From Sulfuriferula sp. (GTDB taxonomy: Bacteria > Pseudomonadota > Gammaproteobacteria > Burkholderiales > Sulfuriferulaceae), in the NCBI GenBank assembly GCA_041651255.1, contig JBAZJP010000005.1, positions 24,405-88,404 on the forward strand: 64,000 nucleotides of DNA, in the 5' to 3' direction. This document shows, in pieces, positions 14,538-54,604 of this stretch (its first letter is position 1; every line of letters begins with the position of its first letter). Position numbers and translations under genes: made by a program. The notes beneath the pieces were generated by a model. That model saw nothing but the letters and a program-made list of their open reading frames with translations. It did not search any database and was not told the origin of the DNA.

Positions 14538-14838
14538 TACACTATTATCCCCGTGGCCTGATTACTGCATTTTAAGTTGAATGTGAAGTTGAATATAAAA
14601 ATCTGCAATTGGGCGGTAATCCCAGTGCAGCAACATTGTTAGCTAATAAAAAGATAAGCGGCCAATGTTGGATTCCCGGTGTGATAGCAATATTTATATG
14701 AGGCCTTTACACGATGTGGCGAGCGCTGTTCAAGTGAGGCGAAAAACAGTGAAAAAGCGGAATGTACAAATAGTACATGAGCATTTTGAGTTGATTTTCA
14801 ACGAAATATTAACAAGCACGAAGACTTACCTGATAGCC

Positions 14839-15653: not shown

Positions 15654-15792
15654 AAAACGAATTTAATATAGCAAGGATTGATGCTGACAGAGTAGGTGAT
15701 GTCAGTAAGTAAATGCATGCGAGATGCTCCAGAACGAACCCGTTATAGAATTATATGATTTTACTGCAATGTAGCTGAATCTGTTACATAAA

Positions 15793-29397: not shown

Positions 29398-30185
29398 TCG
29401 GGTATGACCGTTCTGGATATGATACGAACTTGCGAAAGCCCCAGCAAGGTAAGGCATAAATTGATAATCGCCATGTAACTCATGTCGTAATGCGCGTGGA
29501 CCATAGACCCGAAATAGCCTTCGCGCAGTATCTCGACACCATGCACCATAGGCAACAATAGGACGAATTTTTGCCCTGTGGTGGGTAGCCAGTCAACCAT
29601 GAATGCGGCACCAGATAGTGGAAATAAGAGATATGAGGCAGGGTGCCAGAGTTTCTCAATAATTTCGCTGCGCTCACTTAAAGCGCCTATCCACAATGCA
29701 AGTGCCGAGCCAAACCAGGCTAGCATGAACCAGCCAAACATGATTTTGAGTATATCTTCGGGTGGTTTAATCCAGCCTATCGAGGTGAAGACTATCCCTA
29801 ACATAATAAATGAAGCGGTAGTGCCAGCAATTTCAAGGATTAGTCGAGAAGCAAAAATGTCGATCACTTTGACATGACGGTGATACATCAAGGCCAGGTT
29901 AGGTTCAATGGCCTTGCTGCAGCGGTTAGGCATGTTGCGCCATAGTAAAACAGATGAGTAACCGGTGAGCGCAAATGCGGCAATAGGGATGTTGGTAAAG
30001 TGATGTCCGCCAGCCATAGTCCACAGCACGGTGACACCCAAGGTAAAGAGCATGGGTTCAACGAATAGCCATAAAAAACCAATATTATGACGACCATAGC
30101 GGGTGATGACTTCGCGCATCAATAGCGCGCCAATGACGCGGAATTGTATTTGTAAGGATCGGCGCAAGCTGGGTGTTGTATTCAT
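29394..30185 (-). CDS. wzm: Capsule ABC transporter permease KpsM/Wzm
   Basis: [26 protein letters not shown], multiple TM segments, P-x-VHG-x-E-x2-R. Confidence 0.93.
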
Positions 30186-30197
30186 CGATGGATCTCT

Positions 30198-37610: not shown

Positions 37611-38239
37611 TGCTCTTTACGGAAAATTCTGGCCGGATGGCCGAGTGCTGTAGTTGAAGAAGGGATGTCGGAAATCACGACCCCGCCGGCGCCTATCATT
37701 GTGTTGTCACCAATCGTTATATCCGGAATCACAGTGGTGCTGATACCGAGAAATGCTCTCTGACCCACGGTTACATTGCCGGCAAGTGCGCACTGCGGTG
37801 CTATGTGAGCACAGAACCCAATGCGGCAATCGTGGTCGACAGTAGCACCTGTGTTGATGATCGCCAGGTCTTCGATATGGCTTTCAGCGTTGATTATTGC
37901 GCCACTCATGATTGCTATGCCTTTGCCTAGCACGACGGACGGGGAAATGATTGCAAATGGGCTGATGGCATTGACAAGTTCGAATCCGAGGGTTACAGCG
38001 TGGGCAGTTGCGCGCTCGCGGATGCGGTTTGACCCGATGGCAGGAAAGAGCAGGCTATTTCCGGCTTCACGCAGCTTAATTAGCTGTTCATCTCCCTGTA
38101 GAACGGGTACGTCCAGACATGTAGCAGGGCTGTCTTCGCCACCGACACAGTAGTTAACCTGATAACCCGCTGCGCGTAGTATCTCAATGACGACTTTGGC
38201 ATGACCGCCCCCACCTAAAACGACCACGGAATTTTTCAT
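37607..38239 (-). CDS. Sugar N-acetyltransferase, PerB/PglD/NeuD family (left-handed beta-helix)
   Basis: LGGGGHAKV, AIG-x-N-x2-R, hexapeptide repeats, VDHDC, G-x-PAR. Preferred start ATG 38239 with AGGAGG RBS and ATGA overlap. Confidence 0.88.
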   Translation of the reverse strand: MKNSVVVLGGGGHAKVVIEILRAAGYQVNYCVGGEDSPATCLDVPVLQGDEQLIKLREAGNSLLFPAIGSNRIRERATAHAVTLGFELVNAISPFAIISPSVVLGKGIAIMSGAIINAESHIEDLAIINTGATVDHDCRIGFCAHIAPQCALAGNVTVGQRAFLGISTTVIPDITIGDNTMIGAGGVVISDIPSSTTALGHPARIFRKEQ

Positions 38240-41103
38240 TGCGAACCTCCTGCTTTTGTCCAAACTGGCGATTGCCGCCGCGCAAAAAACAGATTTATTG
38301 ATTCGATGGCGTCCAGCTCATCAATGGAAATGTTGCGTAATGCGCCGCTATCAGGGTGAATTGCTTGGTATTCAAGACCGAGTTGGCTAAATCGCTCCAG
38401 CCAGTCTTGCGATGTGATATTGGTCCGTTTCAAGTGGGAGTTGCCAAATTCTGCAATGATAGCGATGTCTTTATTCTGCTTTATCAGTGATTCAGCCCCA
38501 GCCAATACTTCAAGCTCGGCACCTTCTGCATCAATTTTAATGAGGTGCGCAAATGGCGCGTTTGCCATGATTTGATCTATTGTTGTGGTGCGCACGGTAA
38601 CTGGTTCGATGTCTATTCTGGATGCTTCGTCGAGCGGGAAGAGAGAATGGTGGCCGCTGGTTGCACCTAGATACAAGGTGCGTTCACGCTGTTCGTCAGA
38701 TGCGGCAATGCAGTGTATTTCAACCATATTTTTAAAACCATTCATCCAGATGGTTTTTTCCAGTAGGCGTGCTGTCGGAGGGTAAGGTTCGAATGCAATC
38801 ACACGTCCTTGTCCACGCATGCTCTTCGCAGCCGCAAGGGTGTGCATCCCAACATTTGCACCCACATCAATAAAGATGTCGCCTGGGCTGAGAATATGCT
38901 GAATCAAATGTCGTGTGCCTGGTTCCAGTTCGCCGCTTTCGATGAGTGCTGCAATCAGGGCATGATCTTCACTAGCGCATAAAACATAGCCGACACTGGT
39001 TCTTACCATGAGGGCATCCGTTCCGAAAGGAACGGCTACACGGCGAGCAGCAGTCAGCCCATAAAGCTCAATGCGACCAAGCTGAGGATTCAGTTGATCT
39101 AATTGTAGGTGCAGCTGTTCCTGAGCAGTTATGGACTCAGCCAGTTGAGCCAGGATGGTGGTGTTATCTTCTTTCAGTGTTTGCGGTAGCGAAACATTCA
39201 AGTATTCAGCGACTTGCTGTACACGGTAGGTCATGTCAGCCTGGATGTTGGATAGTGTCGCTAACATCTCGCTTGTATGCTTATGCACGTCGTTGGATAC
39301 GGTTGAGCTTTCTTTGCTGATTAAGGCTGCAGTGTTAACTGCATGTTGGCCTAGTTGCAGGCGCAACTGTTCCTGAGCAGTTATGGACTCAGCCAGTTGA
39401 GCCAGGATGGTGGTGTTATCTTCCTTCAGTGTTTGCGGAAGCGAAACATTCAAGTATTCAGCGACCTGTTGTACACGGTTGGTCATGTCAGCCTGGATGT
39501 TGGATAGTGTCGCTAACATCTCGTTTGTAAGCTTATGCACGTCGTTGGATACGGTAGAACTTTCTTTACTGATTAAAGCTGCAGTGTTAACTGCATGTTG
39601 ACTTAGTTGTAGGCGTAGCTGTTCCTGAGCTTGATCTCCCAATATAAGCCGTGCCAGGATTGTCGTTTTGATCTCGTCAATGGATTGTGGTAAAGATGTA
39701 TTTAGTTGCTCAGCAGCTTCCTGTGCCTGGCGGGTTAGGTCTGCTTGCGTCTTAATTAGCGCAGTTTGTACGCTATGAGAAAAGTTGTTTATTTCGTGCA
39801 ACAAGGTTGTATGCTCTTGGCCAATCAAGGATGCTGTCTCATAGGCGAGCTTGTCTAGTTGTTGATGAAGCCGCTTTTGTGCTGTTTCAGCTTTCAAGAG
39901 AGACGCTAATATTGTTGCTTTGATATCCTCAGCTGTTTGTGGCAACGATGCACTTAATTGCGAAGTCGCTTCTTGCACCAGGCGGGCAAGGTTCATTTGA
40001 GTTTTAGTTAGCGCTGTTTGCGCATCGTTTGCAACTTTGCTAATTCTGTAAGATAAGGCTGCGTGCTCTTGATCAATCAAAGTCGTTGTTTCTTTGCTGA
40101 GCTTGTCGACTTGTTGCGCCAGAGTCAATGTTGCGGTTTGCCCATCTTTGAGTTCTGCTCTGATTGTCGCGACATCGGATTGTTGTTGTGAATTAATTCG
40201 TTGTATTGATAGCTCTATGCCTTGCAAGCGTTGACGGCTATCTGCGACTGCTGAGGGTAGTGTAAGTGTATCGATTGCCCATTTGATAAAGGGCATATTT
40301 CTTAGTTTGTGTAGCCAGGATGCCGCTGTTAACCCCGCCACTCGATTCGAGATAACTCTATCCCTGTTGGATGTTTTGATCTCGGAGAGGATGGAGAGTT
40401 TGCTGCGGCCATTTCTTAGTTGTGTCAAATAATGTTCGAAGTTCTGTTGGTCTGGCAAGCGACCGAGAACCGATTGAAATGCATGATTAATAAACTGGAC
40501 ATCATCATAAACAAGTAATTCGTTTAGATGGACGCGTGAAATTGCGCAGATTAATTCAATTAACCACCCAAGAACAGGCACGCGTCGATATTTTAGTAGC
40601 AGGTATGTCCAGCGCAGTTTTTTATACCACTTTTTGGCAATTTCAGTTTCTCCAGAGGCCGCTAGCTGTCCCAGAATTTGGATGCGAGAGATGCCGTCAT
40701 TTAATCGTTGATTAAAATAATGCAATCCAGTCGGGTCTGGTGTTCTATCTAGTATTTCTAAGTAAGCAGCGTTGATAAATTTTTCACCGTCTAATGACAA
40801 TAGGCGCGGTAGTCTGATGTGTATTTGCGAAGTGGGGTCAAACAATGGGCTGGTTGATGTCTGCTCGTGACTCAAGTCATGAGTTGTAATTTTTTCGGGT
40901 TGTGATTGGGGTTCGCAAGGGGAGGCGTTTTCTTTAACTTGAGGATTGTGCGGGCAACTAAGTGCGTTGATGGCTGGGCTGCGCATCTGATGATTGAGAA
41001 TATCTCCCATGCTTGGATCATGTATCGTCATCTTTTTTGGTCGGGATGTGCGATTGTGAATGCTGTCGTTATTCATTTTGTCAAGGGTTGAGGGATGTTT
41101 CAC
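38236..41103 (-). CDS. FkbM-family methyltransferase with two N-terminal DUF4214-like modules and a 4x84-aa helical repeat stalk
   Basis: C-terminal IDVGANVG, AFEP, IKIDAEGAELEVL-x-G. Two F-x3-(Y/F)-x3-L-x-R-x-PD modules. Start codon uncertain. Confidence 0.85.
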   Translation of the reverse strand: MKHPSTLDKMNNDSIHNRTSRPKKMTIHDPSMGDILNHQMRSPAINALSCPHNPQVKENASPCEPQSQPEKITTHDLSHEQTSTSPLFDPTSQIHIRLPRLLSLDGEKFINAAYLEILDRTPDPTGLHYFNQRLNDGISRIQILGQLAASGETEIAKKWYKKLRWTYLLLKYRRVPVLGWLIELICAISRVHLNELLVYDDVQFINHAFQSVLGRLPDQQNFEHYLTQLRNGRSKLSILSEIKTSNRDRVISNRVAGLTAASWLHKLRNMPFIKWAIDTLTLPSAVADSRQRLQGIELSIQRINSQQQSDVATIRAELKDGQTATLTLAQQVDKLSKETTTLIDQEHAALSYRISKVANDAQTALTKTQMNLARLVQEATSQLSASLPQTAEDIKATILASLLKAETAQKRLHQQLDKLAYETASLIGQEHTTLLHEINNFSHSVQTALIKTQADLTRQAQEAAEQLNTSLPQSIDEIKTTILARLILGDQAQEQLRLQLSQHAVNTAALISKESSTVSNDVHKLTNEMLATLSNIQADMTNRVQQVAEYLNVSLPQTLKEDNTTILAQLAESITAQEQLRLQLGQHAVNTAALISKESSTVSNDVHKHTSEMLATLSNIQADMTYRVQQVAEYLNVSLPQTLKEDNTTILAQLAESITAQEQLHLQLDQLNPQLGRIELYGLTAARRVAVPFGTDALMVRTSVGYVLCASEDHALIAALIESGELEPGTRHLIQHILSPGDIFIDVGANVGMHTLAAAKSMRGQGRVIAFEPYPPTARLLEKTIWMNGFKNMVEIHCIAASDEQRERTLYLGATSGHHSLFPLDEASRIDIEPVTVRTTTIDQIMANAPFAHLIKIDAEGAELEVLAGAESLIKQNKDIAIIAEFGNSHLKRTNITSQDWLERFSQLGLEYQAIHPDSGALRNISIDELDAIESINLFFARRQSPVWTKAGGSQ
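39121..40128. repeat. Intragenic tandem repeat, 4 x 252 bp (84 aa)
   Basis: ctgagcagttatggactcagccag occurs at 39121 and 39373 (252 bp apart). Two near-identical units are preceded in the protein by two diverged units of exactly 84 aa, each containing SLPQ and ending AQ. Confidence 0.92.
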
Positions 41104-41467
41104 ATAGTGGAGCCATAATTATGTTTTCAAATAATGTCGTGTGTTTTTTCGAGCTTGATAACATCAGTGGCGTATTGCTATCCCTAGTGATTATGTTTTT
41201 GATTACCTAATGAGCAATATAATTTTTTATTGCTGGTTGTAAATATTGAATGATTATATTACAAACAAATGGCTTGGTGTTTCTTTGTAACCTATCTGCT
41301 AGGTTGATAATTGGGTTATGCAGCTTAGTCCAATATGCAATATGGTGATTGTGAAATAAGTTGTTTTTAACTGTTGCGTTTGAAGTTTTATGTAGGACGC
41401 TATTACCTGTTGAGGGTGCTGTCAGGTAATCTACATTGTTCAAATGCTGGTCTCATCCTGATAAATG

Positions 41468-41505
41468 AAAACGCTGAATTTCAATCTCGAAATTCAGCGT
41501 TTTTT
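41468..41505. terminator. Intrinsic (rho-independent) terminator, potentially bidirectional
   Basis: AAAACGCTGAATTTC-aatctc-GAAATTCAGCGTTTTTT: perfect inverted repeat, 21 bp past the stop of 41527..41871. Confidence 0.85.
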
Positions 41506-41526
41506 GCCGCTTATACACTTTAGTTA

Positions 41527-41871
41527 TTAAGCTTGGGTGCTAACACTATCAGTGGTGAGGCTTTGGCTTGCTAGTTGAGAAAGCGTTTGCAAGTAATCAG
41601 CAGCTGTTGCATAGGTGTTGCCTTGTAGGCTTTGCGATAGTTGCATTATATCCGCTCCAGCCTGCTGAGATTGAGCGATGCTCTGTACGGATGCTTTAGC
41701 TTGTTGGCGATTTTGGACAGCATCTGTACTAGTTACGTTAGATAACGTTTGTGCGAAAGATGCGCCACCAGATTGAGTAGTGCTTTGAGTTGATGTTTTA
41801 CGATCTTGCATTAAGCATGCAGCGCCAGTTTTGTAGGCACCAGTCCCTATATATCCAGGATTAACAGGCAT
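41527..41871 (-). CDS. Small Q/S/T/A-rich hypothetical protein
   Basis: AAGGAG RBS 6 nt before the ATG; own terminator downstream. Confidence 0.7.
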   Translation of the reverse strand: MPVNPGYIGTGAYKTGAACLMQDRKTSTQSTTQSGGASFAQTLSNVTSTDAVQNRQQAKASVQSIAQSQQAGADIMQLSQSLQGNTYATAADYLQTLSQLASQSLTTDSVSTQA

Positions 41872-42253
41872 TTTATTCTCCTTAAATTAAACTAAAAAAG
41901 TTGAAGTGGTTGAGTGAAGCGCTTTCAGTTTAGAATAATTTGTAATTAATTTAAGGGTGGAATAAGGGGGGGAATCCCATTCTGTTCATGGAAATAAAAT
42001 GTAACGCTGAGCTATGATTTCATGGATTAATTCTGCCAGGTTAAGTTGGCGTTTTTCTGATAGGTAAGATGCATTGGTAATTTTTAAATTTATCTTTAAA
42101 TATTTAAAAAACAGTGTTTGTTAATTTGTATGTGTCGGAAGTCTTGCGTGAATGATTTCGCGGCCCTGTAGAAGGTGGCTGGCCATATTTTATGTTTAGG
42201 CTGCTTTAATCTAGCTTGACCCACTATCTGGCGAATGTTAGTTTCTGTCCATT

Positions 42254-43405
42254 ATGAAAATCTTAATAGATGTTACTCGTTTGGTGAGTCGTTTTATGGA
42301 CGGGCGTTTGCCAACTGGGGTAGATAGAGTCGGGCTGGCGTATGTGCGGCATTATGGTGTGCGAGCGCAGGCAGTGGTGCGTTGGGCGGGGCGGCTGTGG
42401 GTGTTGCCACGTGTGCAATCAGCGGCGTTGTTTGCCTGGTTGGCGAATCCTGTTGACTCACGTGGTGCGGTGTGGATTATTACGCGTGGCATTATGGCGG
42501 GTGGCTGGCTACAGGATGTGGCAGGGAGTATTTTGCTGAATACCGGGCACACGGGTTTGCATGAGAGTGCGTATGTGACCATGCTGTGTAAATTGGGTGT
42601 GCACCCTGTGTTTTTGGTGCATGATCTGATCCCGATTACTCACCCGGAATATTGCCGCGCGGGTGAGGATGAGAAGCATCGGCGGCGTATGCAGCATGTG
42701 CTGACCTTGGGGTGCGGTGTGGTGGCGATTTCGCAAGCTACATTGAATGATTTGAGTCAGTTTGCCGCGCAGTTACAGTTACCTATGCCGCCTGCAGTGG
42801 TCGGGTTGTTAGCACCTGGTCCTGCTCATTGTGTGGCAAGTACGCGCCCAGTGGCCGAACCATATTTTGTAGTATTGAGCACCATAGAACCACGTAAAAA
42901 TCATGTGCTGTTATTACAGGTGTGGCGGCGTCTGGTTGAGCAATATGGCGAACACGCGCCGCGCTTGGTGGTGATAGGGCAGCGTGGTTGGGAGTGTGAG
43001 AATGTGGTGGATTTGCTGGAGCGCTGTGCTGTGCTTAAGGGGGTTGTGATTGAGCTGGCAGATTGCTCGGATGCAGTATTGGTGAATTATTTGCATCATG
43101 CTCAGGCCCTGTTGTTTCCTTCTTTTGTTGAGGGTTATGGTATGCCGCTGGTTGAGGCGTTGGCGTTGGGTCTGCCGGTGATTGCCAGTGATTTGGAAGT
43201 GTTTCATGAGATTGCTGCGGATATTCCTGAATATATTGATCCGCTGGATGGGCTGCGCTGGGCGGAACGGGTGATGGATTACGCACAGCCGAATAGCGAA
43301 TCACGCGCAGCGCAGTTGCAGCGTATATCGCATTTCAAGACGCCAGCTTGGGCGGATCATTTTGCCAAGGTTGATGCTCTGTTAGAGGTTGTCGGAAATG
43401 CCTAA
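42254..43405 (+). CDS. wcbB: GT4 glycosyltransferase, WcbB-like
   Basis: IDVTRL..PTGVDRV, HDLIP-x-THPEY, TIEPRKNH, EGYGMPLVEA. Directly upstream of the kpsC-like gene, as in wcb loci. Confidence 0.8.
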   Translation: MKILIDVTRLVSRFMDGRLPTGVDRVGLAYVRHYGVRAQAVVRWAGRLWVLPRVQSAALFAWLANPVDSRGAVWIITRGIMAGGWLQDVAGSILLNTGHTGLHESAYVTMLCKLGVHPVFLVHDLIPITHPEYCRAGEDEKHRRRMQHVLTLGCGVVAISQATLNDLSQFAAQLQLPMPPAVVGLLAPGPAHCVASTRPVAEPYFVVLSTIEPRKNHVLLLQVWRRLVEQYGEHAPRLVVIGQRGWECENVVDLLERCAVLKGVVIELADCSDAVLVNYLHHAQALLFPSFVEGYGMPLVEALALGLPVIASDLEVFHEIAADIPEYIDPLDGLRWAERVMDYAQPNSESRAAQLQRISHFKTPAWADHFAKVDALLEVVGNA

Positions 43406-44459
43406 GCAAAAAGATTTAACTATGCAGCATATTATTAATGCTGAAGTGCTGGGAATTTATCAGTTTCCCTACTGGAAACATCCTGTGGTGAAGCAGTGTT
43501 TCCCTGCATTTCGGGTGGTATTTATTGAATCCATAGATAAATTGCCGGTGGGTGCGATCCTGGTGTTGTGGGGGATGCGTCCTGTACCAGAGGGCGTGAC
43601 TAAAGATGTGCAGGTTTGGCGAATGGAAGATGGCTTTCTGCGCTCCGTAGGTTTGGGTGCGGATTTGATACGCCCGATGTCGTGGATAGTCGATCAGCAA
43701 GGTATTTACTATGATGCGACGCGGGTATCGGATTTGGAACAGCTATTGGCGCAGACACAGTTTGATGAGGCTCTGCTAGCCAGAGCTGCTGATTTGCGCG
43801 CACGCGTAGTAGCGACTGGGCTGACAAAATATAATGTAGGTGCAGGAAAATGGCAGCGACTTGCGAATGCGGCACGAGTGATCCTGGTGCCCGGGCAGGT
43901 GGAGAGTGACGCATCGTTGGCGTTTGGCGCGCCTGGTGAGCGCACCAATATAGGATTGTTGCAGGCAGTACGGTCTGCGCATCCCGATGCGTATGTGGTG
44001 TATAAGCCACACCCCGATGTTTATGCGCGATTGCGTGCTGAGGGTCAGAATGAGCAGAGTGCCTATCGCTGGTGCGATGAGGTGGTGACCGATGTGGCTA
44101 TGGGGGATTTGCTCACCATGGTTGATGAAGTGCATGTGATTACGTCTTTGGCAGGCTTTGAGGCGCTGTTGCGTGGTAAACCCGTGACTTGCTACGGCCA
44201 GCCATTCTATGCTGGCTGGGGTTTGACGCAGGATGTGATGCCGATAGCTCGGCGTAGTCGACGTTTGAGTTTAGACGAGTTAGTGGCGGCAGTGTTGATT
44301 TTGTATCCGCTGTATTTGAGCCGTGATGGTAAGCATTTGATTACGCCAGAACAGGCATTAAATGAGCTATCTGTTTGGCTGGCACATACCGGTGGTCGTG
44401 TAACCATATGGCGTAAGTTTATCAGGATGTTTCTGCGGCAGATTATTGGCGTGCGTTAA
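43398..44459 (+). CDS. kpsC: KpsC/WcbA-family beta-Kdo transferase, single-domain (about half length)
   Basis: EDGFLRSVGLGA, GIYYDAT, PGQVESDAS, YKPHPDV, SLAGFEALLRG, PFYAGWGLT-x-D. Start ATG 43398 with AGAGG RBS. Confidence 0.85.
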   Translation: MPKQKDLTMQHIINAEVLGIYQFPYWKHPVVKQCFPAFRVVFIESIDKLPVGAILVLWGMRPVPEGVTKDVQVWRMEDGFLRSVGLGADLIRPMSWIVDQQGIYYDATRVSDLEQLLAQTQFDEALLARAADLRARVVATGLTKYNVGAGKWQRLANAARVILVPGQVESDASLAFGAPGERTNIGLLQAVRSAHPDAYVVYKPHPDVYARLRAEGQNEQSAYRWCDEVVTDVAMGDLLTMVDEVHVITSLAGFEALLRGKPVTCYGQPFYAGWGLTQDVMPIARRSRRLSLDELVAAVLILYPLYLSRDGKHLITPEQALNELSVWLAHTGGRVTIWRKFIRMFLRQIIGVR

Positions 44460-44627
44460 TACGGAATTTATACTGTATTTCTGATTATTTCATTTTGTTA
44501 CAGTTTGTAACCATGTAATATCCCGACTTCATGTAAGTAACTTGTAATGTAATAGGGCGTTACTTACCTTAATAATTCGTAGATATTGCTCCTAATCGGT
44601 TGGGCAAAACTTATTGGAATGTGGTTC

Positions 44628-47600
44628 ATGGTCAGAATATCAGTACTCCTCACCTCATATAATCATGCCAAATACTTGCGAGAAGCTATCGACAGTGTTT
44701 TGGCGCAGACATTTGCGGATTTTGAATTATTGATTGTGGATGATGGCTCAACCGATGAATCTTGGGAGATTATTGGTAGTTATGCTGACCCTAGGGTACG
44801 TGGGTTTAGAACTGGTGAGCAAAACATTACTACAGCGGTAAACCAATTAATCGCGCAACAGGCTGTAGGTGAATTTATCGCTATTTTTCATTCAGATGAC
44901 GTTTGGCGAACAGATAAGTTGGCTCAGCAAGTTACTTATCTGGACCAGCACACTGAATGTGGCGCGGTGTTTACACAAACAATTGCCTTAGATGAGGGTG
45001 GTCAGCCACTGTCTGATGGTGCCGCTGGGATTGCTAGCATCTTTGCACAGCCTAATCGTTCTCGTCAGCAATGGCTTAGATATTTTTTCTACCAAATGAA
45101 TGCGTTATGTCATCCCAGTGTGTTGATACGCAAACAGTGTTATCTCGACATAGGTTTTTATCGCGAAACCATGTGGGCGCTGGATGATTTTGATTTGTGG
45201 GTCAGGTTGTGTTTGCGTTACGAAATTCACGTGCTTGAAGATGCGCTGACTTGCTTCCGCGTACGTGCGGATCATGGAAATGTCAGCGGCAATAAAATTG
45301 GAACGCATGTACGTACTGCGACGGAATTCTTTTTCGTGCTGCGCCACTATTTGACCATAGATAGTTTTGAAGAGCTGGTACATATCTTCCCCGAGGCACA
45401 GGTTTATTATCGTGCCGAGGGTTGCGAGCCGCATTTTGTGCTGGCGATGATGGCGTTAGCACAACAGGCTTTCCCGCAAACGCAATTATTCGGTCTGTCT
45501 CTGTTGTTCGATTTGCTGGAGGATGCGGAATCTGCCCGTCGTATTGATGTGCTCTATGGGTTTAAACCTGCTGACTTTCACGCGCTGAAAGTACAGCATG
45601 ATGTGTTTCGTGTTAAGCAATTGCATGAGGCAGAGCAGAAGATTGCGATGTTGGAAACTGCTTCACCTGCCGCACCAGCCATACATTCAGTGGCGTCGTT
45701 AAATGATGTTGTGCGCTTGTGGGGTGATGATCCACGGCTTTTCAGCCAAGTCGGTGTGCGCACGATCTGGGGGGATTTGGAAACAACAGGTCAAGCTGGT
45801 TATCTGATGTATGGGCCGTATTTACCTTTTGCTAAAGGGCATTATCAGGTTGTCGTGCGTGGTTCGGTAGGGCGAGCTGGGGCGCGATTTGATGTGACAG
45901 CCGTTCATGGTAGTCAAACTATAGTCGCGATGGACATAGTGGAAGCTGATGAGACGGGATGCCTGGTTCGCATACTCATAGAATTGACAGACGATTGTAC
46001 TGATCTGGAATGCCGTATTAGCGTTAGTGCAGAATGCAATTTGAGAGTGGCTATGCTGGAAATCACACCATTGCAGTTTGCTGATACGGCAATGACAGGT
46101 ACTCGACCCACACAATTACCCGTTGATATATCAGTATGCCGCCCGTTGCGAATTATGCTGATGGGTAATTGTCAGTCATTAGTTTTGGCCACTTTGATAG
46201 GTATGATGGCAAGTGAGGTAGTTGAAGCAAAAGGTTGGAAGTGGACGCAGGAATTTCGCCAGCGACTGTTAAATAGCGATGCTGAATTGATGGATTGGCT
46301 ATTAAATAGTGACCTGATTTTATTGCACAAAGAAGGTGGTTTTTATCAATGGTTTGAACAGCACTATCCCAATTTGCGATTTAAGGTTCGTTATATACCA
46401 AGTATTTCTTTTGGTGCGTGGCATCCTGATTTGGATCTTATTTCTATTGGGCAAGAGGAGGCTTGTGGGTATGTTGAAGGGTCGATGGGCGCTTGTCAGT
46501 CTACGCTAGCTTTTTATGGTTGGAAACAGGGATGGGATGTCGAACAGACCTTGAATTTGTTTGCGACTGATATTTATGAGCTGATGGGTTATTTTGATGC
46601 TTATGCTGGTTGGAAAGAATTTTTGGTAGAAGAAGGGGTGAGAGGCAACCTTCCTTTGGGGCATCTGATCGATGAGTGGTCGCGCAGGGGGTGCTGGATG
46701 CACTCCATCTACCATCCTAAGTTATTTGTGTTGGTCGATGTGGCGCGTGAATTAATGCTACGTGAACAGATAATGATTAATACGTCGGTTCAGCCAGAAA
46801 CTCTTATAGAGGATGATTTCCTGAATAGTCCAATTTGGCCCATTTATCCCGAAATTGCCGAGCATTATGGTTTGACGGGTGATTATGTGTTTCGCTCAAA
46901 TGAGCGTGAACAAACATTGCGCGAGTTTGTGGTAGATTCTTTTGCCCGCTTTGATCAGTATGGTGGCGCAACGCTGGGTAGCGATATGTATGCTGCAGAG
47001 CAGCTCAAGGTTTTGCATGAGCGTTTGACATTATACCTTGCCCATCGTAAGCCTGTGGATGAGCGCATCATGCCAAAGGCATTGCCTGTGGCAGCCTTAT
47101 CCAACCCCTATCGCAACTTGCCGGATTATCATTTTTGGCGGCGTGCAGTTGAGCAGGTGCCGGTGCAACAACTTGATCCAGTGGTGCGTGCGCGCGTGCA
47201 TTTGCGGGCTGACAGCAAAGTGGCGACTGCGGGCAGTTGTTTCGCACAGCATATTTCCCGCGCTTTGCGGCAACATGGATACAATAATTACATCACTGAA
47301 ACTGGTATAGGACTGAGTGCAGCTGAAGCTGAACAACGCAACTATGGTGTATATTCAGCGCGCTACGGCAATGTTTACACTGCGCGTCAACTGGTACAGT
47401 TGTTTGATCGTGCCTATGGCGACTACGCACCGAGTGAACAAGCTTGGCTGCGTGAAGATGGTCGATTTGTGGACCCCTTCCGGCCACAAATCGAACCTGA
47501 TGGATTTGCACAGATTGAAGCGCTGGAACAATCGCGTGCAGAACAATTTTCTGCCGTACGCGAACTGTTTGAAAATCTTGATGTGTTTGTATTTACACTA

Positions 47601-48164
47601 GGGCTAACAGAAGCCTGGCGTAACCGCAGCGATGGCGCCGTTTTTCCACTTGCGCCCGGCGTTGTTGCTGGTGCAATGAATCCGCGCGAGCATGAGTTTA
47701 TCAACTTCAATACGCAGGATGTGATTGGCGATTTACAGGCCTTTATCAACCGTTTATTACGGATCAATCCAGCTGCAAAAATGATACTGACCGTGTCACC
47801 CGTGCCACTGATTGCGACGTATGAAGATCAGCATGTGTTGGTGTCGAATACTTACAGCAAATCGGTATTGCGTGCGGCGGCCGAAGAAATCTGCCGTCGT
47901 AACGCCATGTGCGAATACTTCCCCGCCTACGAGATGATTACAGGGCATTATAATCATGGCGCATGGTTTGAAGGTGACTTGCGTTCAGTGCGAGCTGAAG
48001 GGATTGAACATGTCATGCGTACATTCTTTAAGCATTATGCGGCAGATGAGGCAGGTATGGCTGATGGAGAAGGTAAGGCAAGTGCAGCTCGAGTTGTATT
48101 GAATTATGCTGCTGTAGCAGGTGTCGTGTGCGAAGAAGCTGCGTTGGATCAGCCGTCAGTCTAG
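44628..48164 (+). CDS. Multidomain fusion: GT2 + beta-sandwich + WcbI-like domain + GSCFA (SGNH-like) domain
   Basis: GT2: SVLLTSYNH, VDDGSTD, DFDLW. Module GYLMYGPY. WcbI-like: GNCQ, IPSI-x-F-x-AWHPD, HS-x-YHP. GSCFA: TAGSCFAQ, FTLGLTEAW, LTVSPVP, YFPAYE. Preferred start ATG 44628; ORF track uses 44586. Confidence 0.78.
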   Translation: MVRISVLLTSYNHAKYLREAIDSVLAQTFADFELLIVDDGSTDESWEIIGSYADPRVRGFRTGEQNITTAVNQLIAQQAVGEFIAIFHSDDVWRTDKLAQQVTYLDQHTECGAVFTQTIALDEGGQPLSDGAAGIASIFAQPNRSRQQWLRYFFYQMNALCHPSVLIRKQCYLDIGFYRETMWALDDFDLWVRLCLRYEIHVLEDALTCFRVRADHGNVSGNKIGTHVRTATEFFFVLRHYLTIDSFEELVHIFPEAQVYYRAEGCEPHFVLAMMALAQQAFPQTQLFGLSLLFDLLEDAESARRIDVLYGFKPADFHALKVQHDVFRVKQLHEAEQKIAMLETASPAAPAIHSVASLNDVVRLWGDDPRLFSQVGVRTIWGDLETTGQAGYLMYGPYLPFAKGHYQVVVRGSVGRAGARFDVTAVHGSQTIVAMDIVEADETGCLVRILIELTDDCTDLECRISVSAECNLRVAMLEITPLQFADTAMTGTRPTQLPVDISVCRPLRIMLMGNCQSLVLATLIGMMASEVVEAKGWKWTQEFRQRLLNSDAELMDWLLNSDLILLHKEGGFYQWFEQHYPNLRFKVRYIPSISFGAWHPDLDLISIGQEEACGYVEGSMGACQSTLAFYGWKQGWDVEQTLNLFATDIYELMGYFDAYAGWKEFLVEEGVRGNLPLGHLIDEWSRRGCWMHSIYHPKLFVLVDVARELMLREQIMINTSVQPETLIEDDFLNSPIWPIYPEIAEHYGLTGDYVFRSNEREQTLREFVVDSFARFDQYGGATLGSDMYAAEQLKVLHERLTLYLAHRKPVDERIMPKALPVAALSNPYRNLPDYHFWRRAVEQVPVQQLDPVVRARVHLRADSKVATAGSCFAQHISRALRQHGYNNYITETGIGLSAAEAEQRNYGVYSARYGNVYTARQLVQLFDRAYGDYAPSEQAWLREDGRFVDPFRPQIEPDGFAQIEALEQSRAEQFSAVRELFENLDVFVFTLGLTEAWRNRSDGAVFPLAPGVVAGAMNPREHEFINFNTQDVIGDLQAFINRLLRINPAAKMILTVSPVPLIATYEDQHVLVSNTYSKSVLRAAAEEICRRNAMCEYFPAYEMITGHYNHGAWFEGDLRSVRAEGIEHVMRTFFKHYAADEAGMADGEGKASAARVVLNYAAVAGVVCEEAALDQPSV

Positions 48165-48191
48165 ATGATGTGGAAGAGTATTTGAGGTGGT

Positions 48192-51155
48192 ATGAAAAAT
48201 GAGAGTGGTTCAATGAATCAAATAACGATCCCAACACTGGAGAATGCCGCTGGTTTGCTGTCAGTTGCAGAGCTGCTGTCATATCATGATGAGTTTTTTA
48301 TACGTTTGGCATTTTTGGTTTTGCTGGGACGAGCGGCTGATCCTGATGGTTTGAACCATTATTTAGGCCGCTTGCGTAATGGTATCGATAAAGCACAGAT
48401 ACTGGCAGAGATTAAATTTTCACCAGAGGGGGAGGGCTATGCGACAGCGCTTGCTGGACTGGATGCAGTGCTTAAGCCGTATGCTTGGTTGAAATCACCT
48501 ATTTTAAATAAGCTGACCCGCATACAAAAGCGGTTGGGTGGCAACGATGCGATTTTGTGCCACTTACGTGCCTTGGATAATCAACTGTTGCGACAGCAAG
48601 ATGATTTTGGTTATGAGTTACGGCAAGTGGATGAGCGCTTGGCCCAGCAATTGGCAGCACAACAGGCAGCCTCAACGAATTTGGAGGGACAGCTTTCCAG
48701 TCGGTTGGATGCTTTAGCGCAGCAGTTGAGTGAGCAGCAGGTGGCGCTGGCCCAGCAATTGGCAGCACAACAGGCAGCCTCAACGAATTTGGAGGGACAG
48801 CTTTCCAGTCGGTTGGATGCTTTAGCGCAGCAGTTGAGTGAGCAGCAGGTGGCGCTGGCCCAGCAATTGGCAGTACAACAGAGTGCCTCGACGAATTTGG
48901 AGGGGCAGCTTTCCAGTCGGCTGGATGCTTTAGCGCAGCAGTTGAGTGAGCAGCAGGTGGCGCTGGCCCAGCAATTGGCAGCACAACAGGCTGCCTCGAC
49001 GAATTTGGAGGGGCAGCTTTCCAGTCGGTTGGATGCTTTAGCGCAGCAGTTGAGTGAGCCGCAAATGGCGCTGGTGCAGCAAATGACAGTGCAACAGGCT
49101 GCCACAGCGAATTTTGAGGGTTGGGTTTCCAGTCGGCTGGAAGTTTTGATGCAGCGCATGGGCGAGCAGCAGTCAACTTTGGGGCAATTACACTCGTTGA
49201 ATGAGGTCAAGCTGGATGAACTTAAGGAATATAGGGTTGCAGTTCGCCCATGGGTTGGTGAATTGCCCGCTTTGGCTGTGGCACCCAAAGTGTCAGTTGT
49301 CATCGTGCAGTACCAGCACTCGGTTGTGACTAGCCGCTGTATTCGTTCCTTATTCCGTTACACCGATATGTATGATGTTGAAATTGTGGTGGTAGATAAT
49401 GGCAGTTCACCAGAACATGTTGAGGCATTGGTGCAAGAATTTGGTTCGTCTATCAGGATGCTGCAATTGGGAGTCAATCGCTATTTCGGCGAAGGTAACA
49501 ATATAGGGGTTGAAGCGACGCGTGGCGAATTTGTCGTGTTGATCAATAATGACGTGGCAGTTACGCAGGGCTGGTTGAGTGCGTTGTTGCCTCATTTGCA
49601 TGGCAATATTGGCGTTGTGGCGCCGACGTTCCTCTACCCGGATGGTCGCGTGCAGGAATGCGGCGCGACGATAAATGAGCAGGGACGATCTATTCAGAAA
49701 CTGCAGTTTGGTAATCAAAGTGAGTTACCGCTGCTTCCATTTGAGTGTGATTATGTTTCTGCTGCCCTGATAGTTATGCGTAAACGGGATTATCTCGCTG
49801 TGGGCGGTTTTTCACCGGAATATGAACCAGCATATTACGAAGACGTGGATTTGTGTTTCAAGCTGGCTGCGCGGGGGTTGCGTACGGTCTGCGTACCTAA
49901 AGTACGTGTGTATCATGTGGGAAATGCAACTTCAAGTGGCTTTGAATTTGGAATGGAACTTCCGATGCTGATCGATTCTGCCAAGAATGTTCTGCTGTCG
50001 CGCTGGCAGCCGTTTTTGAGTAGTAGAAATGTAGATGGTTTGCGATCAGGGGCACGTGACAGCATGCATTTGCCCGATAGTGCGGCGACTATAACGATGG
50101 CGTCTCCTGCTGCCTTATTCTATTTGCCGGCCGTTGAGTTTGATGCTAACACCCGATACGCTTTAAACATTGCCCGTGCGATGGCGACGACGCATCAGCT
50201 GGTTTTCGCTTGCCCTGCAGCCACTAGTCGTTTGCGTTTATTGCAGATTGCGCGTCACTGGGGGCTGGGACTAGCGAATTTGCAATGCGTGGTCTGGGGT
50301 GATGCTGTCACTGATCAGGTATGGGATAAATGTTTTGTGTTCGGTAATACGGTGTTTCCACCTATCGCTGCACCTGTTGCGCATAGCATATATGCGTGTG
50401 CATTCCCGGTTGATGCTCACCATCCTGATATAACTAATCAGTCGTTAATGGATGGATATCAATATTGGTGCCAAAGTGTATGGGTCAAAAATAATCTTTG
50501 TGATGCGGGTTGGGTAGCGCCTGAACGGGTGACTGTCTTGCCAGAAGCAGTAAGTCAATTTGCGGCTCAAGCAAACAAGGAGCATGTCATTGTATCAGTG
50601 GCGAAATTCACGCTTAATGGCCAGCAGCTTCTGATAATTGAGGCGTTCAAACGTTTGGTTGCTTCAGGTGGTTTTGACGGCTGGCGCTTGATATTGGTTG
50701 GCACGCGTTCTCCACAACCTGATGATCTGGCTTACTTGAGCCACTGTATGGCACAAGCGGAAGGCTGGGCTATTGAGTTTGTGTTCGATGATGCAATAGA
50801 TATATTGCGTGATGTTTATGCGCGTGCAGCAGTGTATTGGCACGGGGCAGGGTTGGGTGTGGATGTGGTCAGCACTCCGGCGCTGGCTGATAATGCCGGG
50901 GTGGAAGCCTTAGAGGCAGCCAGCGCTGGTTGCCATGTTTTTATACCTAATGCTGGATCGGTGTTTGAATGGTTGCGCGGTGCACCAACTGGTGTGTATG
51001 CGTGTGCTAGTGTTGATGAGCTGGTAAATCTTATGCTCGATGTTAATCAGGATTTGGGTTGGGAGGTCGCTGCGGAACATGATGCAGCGTGGTTGCAAGA
51101 TCGGTCTTTGCAAAAATTTACCGAGTCAGTTCAGAATAAGCTTCAGTTGCTGTGA
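48192..51155 (+). CDS. DUF4214-like module + 36-aa repeat stalk + GT2 + GT4-like glycosyltransferase
   Basis: LLGRAADPDGLNHYLGRL; repeats; GT2 VVDNGS, GNN-x-G, NND, YYEDVDLC; C-terminal GT4-like domain with GVEALEAASAG. Confidence 0.85.
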   Translation: MKNESGSMNQITIPTLENAAGLLSVAELLSYHDEFFIRLAFLVLLGRAADPDGLNHYLGRLRNGIDKAQILAEIKFSPEGEGYATALAGLDAVLKPYAWLKSPILNKLTRIQKRLGGNDAILCHLRALDNQLLRQQDDFGYELRQVDERLAQQLAAQQAASTNLEGQLSSRLDALAQQLSEQQVALAQQLAAQQAASTNLEGQLSSRLDALAQQLSEQQVALAQQLAVQQSASTNLEGQLSSRLDALAQQLSEQQVALAQQLAAQQAASTNLEGQLSSRLDALAQQLSEPQMALVQQMTVQQAATANFEGWVSSRLEVLMQRMGEQQSTLGQLHSLNEVKLDELKEYRVAVRPWVGELPALAVAPKVSVVIVQYQHSVVTSRCIRSLFRYTDMYDVEIVVVDNGSSPEHVEALVQEFGSSIRMLQLGVNRYFGEGNNIGVEATRGEFVVLINNDVAVTQGWLSALLPHLHGNIGVVAPTFLYPDGRVQECGATINEQGRSIQKLQFGNQSELPLLPFECDYVSAALIVMRKRDYLAVGGFSPEYEPAYYEDVDLCFKLAARGLRTVCVPKVRVYHVGNATSSGFEFGMELPMLIDSAKNVLLSRWQPFLSSRNVDGLRSGARDSMHLPDSAATITMASPAALFYLPAVEFDANTRYALNIARAMATTHQLVFACPAATSRLRLLQIARHWGLGLANLQCVVWGDAVTDQVWDKCFVFGNTVFPPIAAPVAHSIYACAFPVDAHHPDITNQSLMDGYQYWCQSVWVKNNLCDAGWVAPERVTVLPEAVSQFAAQANKEHVIVSVAKFTLNGQQLLIIEAFKRLVASGGFDGWRLILVGTRSPQPDDLAYLSHCMAQAEGWAIEFVFDDAIDILRDVYARAAVYWHGAGLGVDVVSTPALADNAGVEALEAASAGCHVFIPNAGSVFEWLRGAPTGVYACASVDELVNLMLDVNQDLGWEVAAEHDAAWLQDRSLQKFTESVQNKLQLL
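48639..49178. repeat. Intragenic tandem repeat, 4 near-identical + 1 diverged 108-bp (36-aa) units
   Basis: Unit LAQQLAAQQAASTNLEGQLSSRLDALAQQLSEQQVA; ggcccagcaattggcag at 48641 and 48749. Units are contiguous, with no spacers. Confidence 0.95.
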
Positions 51156-52377: not shown

Positions 52378-53391
52378 ATGCAAGTCACCACGAATAATTT
52401 AGTGCTGGTCACTGGAGCGACAGGATTTATCGGTAGCCGATTAGCGCAGCGTCTGCTCGATGATGGCTATGCGGTGAGAGTGTTGGTGCGCGATCCGCAG
52501 AGATTGTCTGCATTGCTGCGTGAACAATGTGAAGTCGTCGTTGGCGATGTGCTTGACGAGGCAGTAATGGCGAGTGCGGTCAGGCAAGTGCAACTGATAT
52601 TCCATTGTGCGGCAAACGTGAAAACATGGGATACGTATGCGGCTTATTTCGCGGTGAATGTTCAGGGTGTGCAGAATCTGATGCAGGCGATAGCGCAGGT
52701 AAATCCGGATCTGTCGCGTTTGGTACACATCTCTACGGTTGACGTGTATGGCTTCCCCGATGCGCCGTGTGACGAGACTTGTGTTGCCACGGGTGGTGAG
52801 TTCGATTATGGCAAAACCAAGCTGATGGGTGAGAATCTGGTGCGCTCACTGGGCGATGCGGCAAATATTTCTTACACGATTATCCGGCCCTGCAATGTCA
52901 TCGGGCCGGGCAGTCAGTTCATAGAACGCATAGGTGCAGAGTTAAAGTCTGGGGTTATGTTGACCATAGCCGGCGGACACACTCATGCCGGGCTGGTTTA
53001 TATTGATAATCTGGTTGATGATGTGGTGTGGGCTGCAACTGCGCCTAATGCACACCGGGAATGCTACAACGTGCGTGATGATAACGAAGTCGATTGGGCT
53101 GAATTTTTGCGGGTATTTCGTCAGTGTATCGGGGGCAAGGGCTTAGTGATCAATTTGCCCTTTGCGGTTGCGGATAAATTGGCATGGGCTTTTGCAATAG
53201 TGCATAAAACATTGTTACCGCGCCATGAGCCACTGTTACACCGCTTGCTGGTGCGGTTTTTTGGTAAAACCTGTGGGCATAGCCCGGCAAAAATTCGCAC
53301 GCATCGAGCCGGTGCATCTGCCGTGCAGAGGATAGATTTTGACGAGGCAATGCGGCGGTCGTGTCAGTGGTTTAAGGGTGAAAATGACTAA
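52378..53391 (+). CDS. NAD-dependent epimerase/dehydratase (extended SDR, 3-beta-HSD-like)
   Basis: VTGATGFIG, FHCAA, HISTVDVYG, YGKTK (YxxxK), IRP-x-NV-x-GPG. Confidence 0.88.
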   Translation: MQVTTNNLVLVTGATGFIGSRLAQRLLDDGYAVRVLVRDPQRLSALLREQCEVVVGDVLDEAVMASAVRQVQLIFHCAANVKTWDTYAAYFAVNVQGVQNLMQAIAQVNPDLSRLVHISTVDVYGFPDAPCDETCVATGGEFDYGKTKLMGENLVRSLGDAANISYTIIRPCNVIGPGSQFIERIGAELKSGVMLTIAGGHTHAGLVYIDNLVDDVVWAATAPNAHRECYNVRDDNEVDWAEFLRVFRQCIGGKGLVINLPFAVADKLAWAFAIVHKTLLPRHEPLLHRLLVRFFGKTCGHSPAKIRTHRAGASAVQRIDFDEAMRRSCQWFKGEND

Positions 53392-54604
53392 TTCGCATGT
53401 GGTGTTTTTACAAGGCTTGCCATCACCGTTTTTCAGTCGTGTCGCACGTGGATTAGCTGAATCGGGTTGTCGGGTAACAGGGATTAACTTGTGTGTAGGA
53501 GACCAGTTATTCTGGCGTGGTCCGAATACGCTGAATTACCGCGGTCGCCTGGCTGATTGGCCGCAGTTTATCGCTGATTTCTACGATAAAAATGGCGTGA
53601 CTGATATTGTTCTGTTAGGCGAGCAACGCAGTTACCACCAGCATGCAATCAAGCTGGCACAAGCACGTGGCATACGCGTGACGGTGACCGATTTTGGCTA
53701 CTTGCGCCCTGACTGGATGGCGTTTGAACGGGATGGTATGGGCGGCGATTCGCATTTCCCCAAAGATCCGCAAGCCATATTGGCGCTGGCTGCCCAGGCG
53801 CCCAAGGCAGCGCTCACACAGCGCTATACAGATAGCTTCTGGACTATGGCATGGGGCGACATGCTTTATCATTTTGCCAATTTCTTTTATTTCTGGTTAT
53901 TTCCTTATTATCGTCGTCCCTACAAACGTAACCACCCGTTAGTGCATTATTTCTCTATCGGCAAGCGATTGCTGTTTGCTAAACGTGGGCATCAACATGC
54001 GACCCGCAGATTAGCCGAATTAAAAGCTGATGGTGCGCGTTATTTCATGTTCCCGTTGCAGTTGGAAAACGATTTTCAAATTGTGTCCTATTCCCCATTT
54101 GACCGTCTGGAAGATGCGATATGGCTGGTGTTACAGTCCTTTGCCAAGCATGCCAGCGCGGAGACTCGTTTGCTGGTCAAAGTGCATCCACTGGATCCCG
54201 GCTTGAAGAATTGGAAAAAAATGATTTGCCGCTGGACAAGTGAACTGGGCATAGCTGAACGTATTGATTATTTTGATGGCGGCAATTTAGATGACATTAT
54301 CAGCGCGTCACAGGGCGTGGTGACAGTTAACAGTACCGTGGGTATTCGCGCGCTACAACTGGGTAGCCCGGTCATTACGCTAGGCGATGCGATTTATGAT
54401 GTAGATGGGCTGGCTTTTCAGGACGGTATTGATCGCTTCTGGATTGAGGCTAAAAAACCAGATCCGGTATTGGTTGACGCATTTATCGATGCGGTCTGTC
54501 ATAGCATACAAATACGTGGTACTTTTTATAGTGAGCCTGGCTTGAGTGCGGCGGTTGATGCTGCCGTGATCCGGCTATCCACGGGGACGAGCGGCTTAGC
54601 CTGA
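53384..54604 (+). CDS. kpsS: KpsS/WcbO/RkpJ capsule priming beta-Kdo transferase
   Basis: FLQG-x-PSPFF, GYLRPDW, PLQLENDFQ, K-x-HP-x-D, TVNSTVG. Preferred start ATG 53384, overlapping the SDR stop. Confidence 0.88.
   Translation: MTNSHVVFLQGLPSPFFSRVARGLAESGCRVTGINLCVGDQLFWRGPNTLNYRGRLADWPQFIADFYDKNGVTDIVLLGEQRSYHQHAIKLAQARGIRVTVTDFGYLRPDWMAFERDGMGGDSHFPKDPQAILALAAQAPKAALTQRYTDSFWTMAWGDMLYHFANFFYFWLFPYYRRPYKRNHPLVHYFSIGKRLLFAKRGHQHATRRLAELKADGARYFMFPLQLENDFQIVSYSPFDRLEDAIWLVLQSFAKHASAETRLLVKVHPLDPGLKNWKKMICRWTSELGIAERIDYFDGGNLDDIISASQGVVTVNSTVGIRALQLGSPVITLGDAIYDVDGLAFQDGIDRFWIEAKKPDPVLVDAFIDAVCHSIQIRGTFYSEPGLSAAVDAAVIRLSTGTSGLA

Follow-up and report, generated by a model that had tools for sequence, protein, structure and literature searches.

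The stretch of DNA analysed here (the window, 64,000 nucleotides of a Sulfuriferula sp. contig, to which all coordinates refer unless a related locus is named) is a large Kps-like glycan locus of the type exported via an ATP-binding cassette (ABC) transporter, with many GT4 and GT2 glycosyltransferase genes (Pfam). Three of its proteins contain the domain DUF4214, and the role of this module is the subject of the analysis. The Pfam hidden Markov model (HMM) of DUF4214 (PF13946, gathering cut-off 23.2 bits) detected two copies in P0001 (955 residues, 38236–41103, minus strand; 66.1 bits, E 3e-18), one at residues 31–79 of P0002 (987 residues, 48192–51155, plus strand; 30.3 bits, E 4.4e-7) and one at residues 18–66 of P0003 (219 residues, 26817–27476, minus strand; 42.0 bits, E 1e-10). 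All three proteins were over the cut-off, which confirmed the domain assignment made in a preliminary description of this DNA.

When the complete 2.9-Mb genome was searched in all six frames, exactly these four copies scored over the cut-off, all within 24 kb. A fifth match, on contig C4 (E 0.029), lay in a nonsense open reading frame (ORF) that lacked the motif, and it was rejected. The family search also matched two of 14 control genomes, those of Escherichia coli and Synechococcus elongatus, one of them over the Pfam cut-off. The motif had been described as present in one, two and one copies in the three proteins, beginning with F-x3-[YF]. This literal form had no match in the window. With the spacing changed to F-x4-[YF], exactly four sites were found (27327–27413, 40408–40494, 40693–40779 and 48297–48383), and none appeared in 50 shuffles of the window. 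The copy numbers were as described, and the spacing was in error.

The base module in its full form is about 95 residues long and consists of the helical DUF4214 core and a conserved extension of about 35 residues. A profile built from the four window segments (~98 residues each) was searched against 1.84 billion representative proteins, and 24,258 clusters (50% identity) were matched at E ≤ 1e-3. Many of the best 150 of these matched the core only (profile positions ~15–63), and others matched through positions ~85–97. The four modules of the window aligned over positions 1–98. We call this longer form the extension-bearing base module; it is a subtype defined in this analysis and not a curated family.

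Alignment of 128 full modules from relatives gave the extension consensus S.Eg(r)......l.GL..ai...r..r.PvlG.l.r.l. Lys or Arg was found at 64–67% in two columns, Pro at 80% and Gly at 74%. Hydrophobic residues filled both positions directly past the Pro, and also +5 and +6 from it, and acidic residues were nearly absent. The net charge of the extension was +4.6 ± 2.0 (at least +3 in 87% of the modules), and that of the core averaged −1.3. The window extensions had charges of +6, +4, +5 and +4. These are the Trp/Lys/Arg-rich segments of the preliminary description. All four share the same alignment columns directly past the Pfam core, and they therefore represent one homologous element. Trp reached only ~30% at one column, so the signature of the family is a basic segment with a Pro–hydrophobic–Gly centre and not Trp. 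The homology and basic character of the segments were thus upheld, but Trp-richness was not a feature of the family.

In the three proteins, Kyte-Doolittle analysis detected no transmembrane or signal-like segment, in agreement with the earlier remark that no signal peptides were evident. The highest 19-residue mean (1.6) was in the linker between the two modules of P0001. A reading of the proteins as secreted was considered and rejected; they have no signal or RTX features, and their enzymes need S-adenosylmethionine or nucleotide sugars.

P0001, the candidate chain terminator or ruler, has 955 residues if counted from a GTG and 931 from Met25. A disordered N-terminus (residues 1–92) precedes two base modules (residues 93–190, 40534–40827, and residues 189–284, 40252–40539), each made up of a core and an extension (EIAKKWYKKLRWTYLLLKYRRVPVLGWLIELICAI, net +6, and RVISNRVAGLTAASWLHKLRNMPFIKWAIDTLTLP, net +4, respectively). 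They are followed by a stalk of 386 residues (285–670, 39094–40251) built of 84-residue units, and by a FkbM/RfbT-like methyltransferase domain (671–955, 38239–39093), a candidate methyl-capping enzyme. Modelling of the double base with AlphaFold2 (AF2) from 19 sequences produced one compact fold, with a predicted local distance difference test score (pLDDT) of 80.4 and a predicted template modelling score (pTM) of 0.70. From the AF2 model of the full-length protein only the secondary structure was taken, because its pLDDT was too poor for a fold search. Five long helices were predicted in the stalk (289–385, 391–469, 475–554, 563–638 and 641–670), with breaks at SLPQ motifs. At the DNA level the stalk contains a tandem repeat with a period of 252 (2.1 copies, 39093–39630). 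Simple Fourier analysis showed weak to modest heptad periodicity in the stalks. A coiled coil rises 0.148 nm per residue, and as a straight coiled coil the P0001 stalk would span ~57 nm at most, given that the SLPQ breaks could permit bending.

The enzyme domain matched Methyltransf_21 (PF05050) at residues 746–909 (74.9 bits, cut-off 22.7), V_cholerae_RfbT (PF05575; 41.6 bits, cut-off 27.9) and the NCBIfam family fkbM_fam (TIGR01444; 101.7 bits, cut-off 37.7). RfbT of Vibrio cholerae methylates the terminal perosamine in the O1 O-antigen. Besides the score over the RfbT cut-off, P0001 resembles RfbT in its surroundings. It heads a cassette in which a NeuD/PglB/VioB-family acetyltransferase (the next gene) is accompanied by a DegT aminotransferase and by three genes of the GT4 type. 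Another part of the locus encodes a GDP-mannose 4,6-dehydratase. The cassette aminotransferase scored best against LegC/PseC-type models, under their cut-offs (NCBIfam). RfbT, on the other hand, is a stand-alone enzyme, ~286 residues long by its Pfam model, and has neither base nor stalk.

The orthologues of P0001 keep the base and the enzyme, and the Trp residues in their extensions are invariant. Their stalks are 134, 302, 386, 386 and 426 residues long, with 1, 3, 4, 4 and 5 SLPQ-type breaks, respectively, and conservation is higher in the base than in the stalk. Two near-identical metagenomic orthologues, P0009 (895 residues) and P0010 (979 residues), are apart by exactly one 84-residue stalk unit (compare locus L087). 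A further orthologue, P0008, has a single stalk unit and an extra N-terminal domain of ~290 residues without a Pfam match. In the related locus L005 the orthologue is divided between overlapping ORFs, 3596–4486 (base) and 4483–6861 (rest), as the result of a frameshift or else of a natural split. The L005 contig ends with a GT4 protein (14126–16846) that bears three DUF4214 modules on its C-terminal side.

The disordered N-terminus of P0001 contains, just before the double base, the linear motif (T/S)x(H/Y)DPSMGDIL (residues 28–36; 40996–41022, minus strand). It occurs once in this genome, together with a degenerate second copy, ITTHDLSHE. Three copies are present in P0008, two each in P0009 and P0010, and one each in P0011 and P0012, which are described below. 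The motif could be a docking peptide.

P0002 (48192–51155, plus strand) has a single base module (residues 22–116, 48255–48539) with the extension EGYATALAGLDAVLKPYAWLKSPILNKLTRIQKRL (net +4). Its stalk of ~235 residues (~117–350, 48540–49241) is rich in Gln, Leu and Ala, has nearly no Pro or Gly, and is built of 36-residue units. The corresponding DNA repeat has a period of 108 (4.7 copies, 48635–49141) and is 92% identical at the DNA level. Beyond the stalk, Pfam detected Glycos_transf_2 (GT2) at residues 368–520 and a GT4-like domain, Glyco_trans_1_4, under threshold (22.1 bits, cut-off 27). The GT2 part matched chondroitin synthase 2z87 (E 6e-11). In the orthologue P0172 the stalk has the same length at 46% identity, its repeats having diverged. 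This retention of length despite divergence fits a spacer whose length matters.

P0003 (26817–27476, minus strand) is a headless base, with one DUF4214 core, an extension (net +5) and a tail of ~115 residues. No enzyme domain was found in it (Pfam gave DUF4214 only, and NCBIfam no family). Its stop abuts the start of the gene for P0005 (23496–26816, minus strand), a GT4–GT2–GT4 protein of 1106 residues (Pfam) and the candidate for a polymerase paired with the headless base. Stand-alone homologues of P0003 (147–220 residues) precede genes for multi-glycosyltransferase (multi-GT) proteins of 1244–1396 residues in loci L001–L003, and the pairing of a base gene with a multi-GT gene is conserved in L001, L002, L003, L085 and L086. 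P0003 and its homologues align colinearly with the C-terminal ~200 residues of the FkbM–coiled coil–DUF4214 proteins P0173, P0013 and P0174, and several members of this group have the C-terminal motif LTP.A..IY.QLK in common. We interpreted P0003 as most likely a tether of P0005.

The preliminary description had assigned to all three proteins a foot, a helical stalk and an enzyme. This architecture was found in cis in P0001 and P0002, whose stalks are helical regions poor in Pro and Gly. P0003 carries no enzyme, and what had been taken for its stalk is the tail of ~115 residues.

The export genes (28735–31349, minus strand) sit just upstream of two genes, one for a GT4 protein and the other for the headless base. 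They comprise a KpsE-like gene (30198–31349, minus strand; NCBIfam BexC/CtrB/KpsE, 392.5 bits, below the cut-off of 437.5), a KpsM-like ABC-2 permease (29394–30185, minus strand; Pfam ABC2_membrane; NCBIfam KpsM, 94.9 bits, below the cut-off of 300) and the ABC ATPase (a 240-residue ORF, 28735–29457, minus strand; Pfam ABC_tran). Elsewhere in the locus are a Poly_export/SLBB protein (11360–12550; Pfam) and two Capsule_synth (KpsS/KpsC-like) genes (43389–44459 and 53339–54604; Pfam; NCBIfam KpsS, 236.2 bits, below the cut-off of 600). The matches to NCBIfam KpsE, KpsM and KpsS were clear but under the curated cut-offs, and for this reason we call the system Kps-like. A KpsE/M/T-like transporter context was present in the window, L001, L086 and L087, with matching gene order in all of them. 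In the transporter ATPase, Pfam detected ABC_tran only and no C-terminal carbohydrate-binding (Wzt_C) domain. Within the locus, a Wzt_C domain (46.3 bits; Pfam) occurs only on a sulfotransferase-family protein (31467–33089, minus strand), which adjoins this ATPase.

The position of the module was then compared among relatives. In ten long relatives the module was at one end and the enzyme beyond a spacer. Six of them were of the form double DUF4214, spacer, FkbM, with ~300–590 residues from the second module to the FkbM Pfam match; one had a GT2 domain after ~250 residues, and one had GT4 first. Module and capping enzyme were always on opposite ends of the spacer, whichever terminus the module occupied. 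Two proteins of reversed polarity, P0013 (826 residues) and P0173 (937 residues), run from FkbM through a spacer of ~450–550 residues rich in Gln, Glu, Ala and Arg to DUF4214 with its extension and a tail of ~110 residues. Each of their genes overlaps the start of a gene for a multi-GT4 protein of 1431–1482 residues.

In L086 such a pair of FkbM-base and multi-GT genes follows KpsE-like, permease, ATPase and GT4 genes. The order in the window is the same, with the slot before the multi-GT gene filled by P0003 instead of an FkbM–spacer–base protein. In two fused relatives the elements form one chain of FkbM, coiled coil, DUF4214 with extension, and glycosyltransferase domains (GT4 and GT2 in P0034, 2328 residues; GT4 in P0129, 2239 residues). 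P0034 and P0129 carry three and two DUF4214-plus-extension modules, respectively, and match coiled-coil Pfam models. In the fused, split and headless forms alike, the module thus falls between ruler and polymerase.

P0011 and P0012 have the same double base (55–57% identical), joined by a linker of ~30–70 residues to a PglD/NeuD-type acetyltransferase, and no long stalk. A ruler is not needed by an enzyme whose substrate is a soluble nucleotide sugar, and the base in these proteins can therefore only localise. P0012 is encoded at 1734–3422 of L004, which has the same aminotransferase and three GT4 genes, and no stalk and no methyltransferase.

The best 150 of the 24,258 cluster representatives were split into 80 extension-bearing and 69 core-only proteins, of which 77 and 64, respectively, were scanned with Pfam. 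In the 77 extension-bearing proteins the partner domains were only cytoplasmic glycan enzymes (FkbM, 11; class-I methyltransferases, ~4; GT4, 6; GT2, 5; RgpF, 1; PglD-type, 1) or there were none. The 64 core-only proteins had some glycosyltransferases, and also PBS_linker (18), RTX, LRR, Kelch, FG-GAP, DUF11, Ig-like and VgrG3-like domains. The contrast is clear despite the small and biased sample, and the function proposed below would concern the extension-bearing subtype and not DUF4214 in general.

Of 300 genomes of the class, two bear the module, too few for co-occurrence statistics between bases. A scan of the genome collection started from the orthologue alignment, with methyltransferase peptides as the seeds, and 79 of its 80 loci held ordinary FkbM genes lacking DUF4214. 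The informative one was L005, from a betaproteobacterial metagenome-assembled genome, and it was the best relative of the window locus in the collection.

The arrangement resembles known ruler systems of O-antigen synthesis. In WbdD of E. coli O9a, catalytic domains at the N-terminus are followed by a coiled coil, which serves as a molecular ruler, and by a C-terminal region (PMC11231755; PMC5082667). Its base has a membrane-binding amphipathic helix and recruits the polymerase (PMC11231755), and a change in coiled-coil length alters the modal chain length (PMC11231755; PMC5082667). The coiled-coil protein is described as a membrane-associated scaffold and as a marker of the terminator strategy (PMC11231755). 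In WbbB (Klebsiella O12) and ORF6-O7 the terminator, coiled coil and polymerase modules are fused, and ORF7-O4 has a glycosyltransferase terminator with a coiled coil, preceded by a TPR-like bundle (PMC11231755).

The system described here shares with WbdD (E. coli O9a/O8, Klebsiella O3/O5) a capping methyltransferase, here a candidate one, on a long spacer that is predicted to be helical, an ABC-transporter-dependent pathway, and a non-catalytic end beside a multi-GT polymerase gene (WbdA in E. coli). P0013 and P0173 also share its order of enzyme, coiled coil and base. On the other hand, the enzyme of P0001 is of the FkbM/RfbT type without a kinase, the domain order is reversed, the base is DUF4214, and the stalk is about three times longer and made of 84-residue units. 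The export genes of the window are Kps-like, and their ATPase has no cap-binding domain. A phmmer search of P0001 against all PDB chains, with WbdD among the solved structures, gave no match at E ≤ 0.01.

P0034 and P0129 run, like WbbB and ORF6-O7, from terminator through coiled coil to glycosyltransferase modules, with DUF4214 between the last two. In these systems a glycosyltransferase can also serve as terminator, which is a possible reading of P0002, and the enzyme modules are split in various ways among polypeptides. The window differs from WbbB and ORF6-O7 in having three separate base-bearing proteins and not one scaffold, and DUF4214 is not mentioned in the consulted passages of the account of these systems (PMC11231755).

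With moderate confidence we favour the reading that the extension-bearing DUF4214 module is the base of ruler-type stalk proteins at their polymerase and membrane end, as in WbdD. The module would mark the polymerase- and membrane-proximal end of stalk proteins in ABC-transporter-dependent glycan assembly, and would take the role of the membrane-binding, polymerase-recruiting C-terminal region of E. coli WbdD. The basic and hydrophobic character of its extension would suit a peripheral attachment to anionic lipid. In P0001 the double base and the 386-residue stalk, presumably oligomeric and extended, would keep the RfbT-like methyltransferase away from the site of polymerisation, and by this distance a methyl cap would be placed on long chains only. 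P0002 would present its GT2/GT4-like pair on the stalk of ~235 residues. The enzymes at the far end of this stalk hold the position of a terminator, and P0002 was therefore read, with low confidence, as a capping or block-switching glycosyltransferase. P0003, a base without head or ruler, would tether the abutting 1106-residue multi-GT polymerase. The earlier proposal of a common positioning foot is in line with the placement of the module, the order in the fusions and the basic extension in relatives; it applies to the extension-bearing subtype and not to DUF4214 overall.

Several points weigh against this proposal. The hydrophobic moment of the extension was moderate (0.44–0.53). In the AF2 model of the double base the first extension had a pLDDT of 78–89; being confidently modelled inside one fold, it may be a structural element, perhaps buried, and not a free membrane helix. 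For any DUF4214 protein, binding to a membrane or a partner is at the level of prediction. The full-length AF2 model of P0001, a monomer model from five sequences, had a pLDDT of 44.5, with the stalk below 50, and the SLPQ breaks might let this stalk fold back. The far end of P0002 consists of glycosyltransferases, with no obvious terminator. The partner contrast came from the best 150 of 24,258 representatives, which are biased to multi-copy proteins, and its division into full and core-only modules is arbitrary, as shown by P0017, in which a near-full last module lies beside an FkbM domain. The O-antigen paradigm includes a transporter that recognises the cap, and this half of it is missing here, because the ATPase has no Wzt_C domain.

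An extension of the proposal is that all three bases co-assemble at one Kps-type export site, as rulers of different lengths on one capsule machine. We regard this as unlikely. If true, the polymerase would be kept at zero distance by the headless base, the stalk of ~235 residues would present a capping or block-switching glycosyltransferase and that of ~386 residues the methyl cap, and the glycan would pass two successive length checkpoints.

The module was also compared with the phycobilisome linkers (PF00427 / ApcE REP), with which it shares the motif F..AY...LGR.PD and which are all-helical protein adaptors. PDB sequence searches with the module matched phycobilisome linkers only, and its only solved relatives are ApcE 8imi (sequence profile, E 5e-7) and 2l06 (fold, probability 0.89). 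The similarity is weak. A Foldseek search of PDB with the double base gave nothing significant, the best match being a phycobilisome linker at E 0.17, with template modelling (TM) scores of 0.25–0.35, and PF00427 (PBS_linker_poly) had no Pfam match in the window proteins. The linkers also differ in binding phycobiliprotein hexamers and in lacking a basic extension, a stalk and an enzyme.

These linkers bear on two other explanations of the module. According to the first, DUF4214 is no membrane or protein anchor but binds a glycan, either the growing chain or a lipid-linked primer (for example the anionic Kdo (3-deoxy-D-manno-octulosonic acid) linker of Kps-type capsules), with the extension gripping the anionic ligand. 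The strongly basic extension and the KpsS- and KpsC-like genes of the locus would suit such a function, and DUF4214 arrays occur on many secreted proteins. One of these is Psh of Pseudomonas putida, a secreted RTX–DUF4214 phage-resistance protein that is genetically linked to O-antigen loci; from modelling and genetics, binding of DUF4214 to O-antigen was proposed (bioRxiv 10.64898/2026.09.02.748959). This is the only functional proposal for DUF4214 in the searchable literature, and it counts against a base function. Psh, however, is type I secreted, has its site of action outside the cell and lacks both an enzyme domain and a stalk, and among the best 150 of the 24,258 representatives RTX and other secreted-type domains occurred only with core-only modules.

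In addition, the conserved residues of the module (F, LGR.PD, G, K and S.E) are shared with the protein-binding repeats of the phycobilisome linkers, and they therefore look like determinants of the fold. No carbohydrate-binding fold was detected, the Foldseek search of PDB yielding nothing better than E 0.17, and the module, which the full stalk separates from the capping enzyme, cannot read the tip of the chain from its position. We therefore consider ligand binding improbable as the function of the module.

The second explanation is that the modules are homo- or hetero-oligomerisation hubs, which nucleate the coiled coils and join several stalks into one complex, while other components contact the membrane. 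All the DUF4214 copies of the genome are in one locus, and L002, L003 and L005 also encode several base-bearing proteins (three, two and at least two, respectively). Tandem modules are frequent, the double module was modelled as one compact fold (pTM 0.70), and the phycobilisome-linker relatives are protein–protein adaptors. On the other hand, L001, L085, L086 and L087 showed a single base-bearing protein within 17–23 kb of complete-looking loci, so a partner base is not obligatory. The one other genome of the 300 in the class also has a single module. A hub function would leave the conserved basic and hydrophobic extension unexplained, and we think it an unlikely account.

A third explanation, that domain shuffling alone produced these proteins, with DUF4214 an inert cap and the helices generic linkers without a measuring role, could draw on the mosaic loci, the same base on a methyltransferase, a glycosyltransferase pair and an acetyltransferase, the recent and nearly identical stalk repeats and the sporadic module (2 of 300 genomes of the class), but it is very unlikely in view of a base that outlasts the stalk in orthologue conservation (invariant Trp included), the stalk length kept between P0002 and P0172 despite sequence divergence, the recurrent order of enzyme, spacer, base and polymerase in fused, split and headless forms, and the charge signature conserved over 128 modules.

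The ruler principle itself is already well known. What we offer as new is a base module for terminators of reversed polarity or split form, the presence of ruler logic in Kps-like capsule loci, a locus with three base-bearing proteins, and unit-wise variation of the stalk. To our knowledge, such chain-length control has not been described for capsules. In the searchable literature, none of the ten papers on DUF4214 links the domain to glycan chain termination; a 2019 survey of terminators in Glycobiology lay outside that search.

DUF4214 is widespread and without established function, and the analysis suggests for its extension-bearing subtype a concrete job at the membrane- and polymerase-proximal end of coiled-coil terminator scaffolds. 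If the three bases do co-assemble as rulers of one machine, this subtype would be a general hub module of ruler-controlled glycan assembly, capsules included. Orthologue stalks that differ in the number of repeat units suggest that evolution has a simple dial with which to set chain length. Genes for terminators, rulers and polymerase tethers in unannotated glycan loci could be spotted with the help of the module, which might also serve glycoengineering in the design of length-controlled glycans.

Two further observations concern the neighbourhood of these genes. Just upstream of the gene for P0002, the window encodes a GT2–WcbI–GSCFA fusion protein (44586–48164, plus strand). In L088 such a fusion (5004–8540) stands in matching order with a base–stalk–GT2 protein, with one gene between them. 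The two genes thus travel together. Toxin–antitoxin pairs (MazE/PIN, ParE and RHH/ParE) flank the glycan cassettes of two unrelated contigs (L001, 14814–16116; L004, 272–755), which hints that the cassettes lie at mobile or variable spots.

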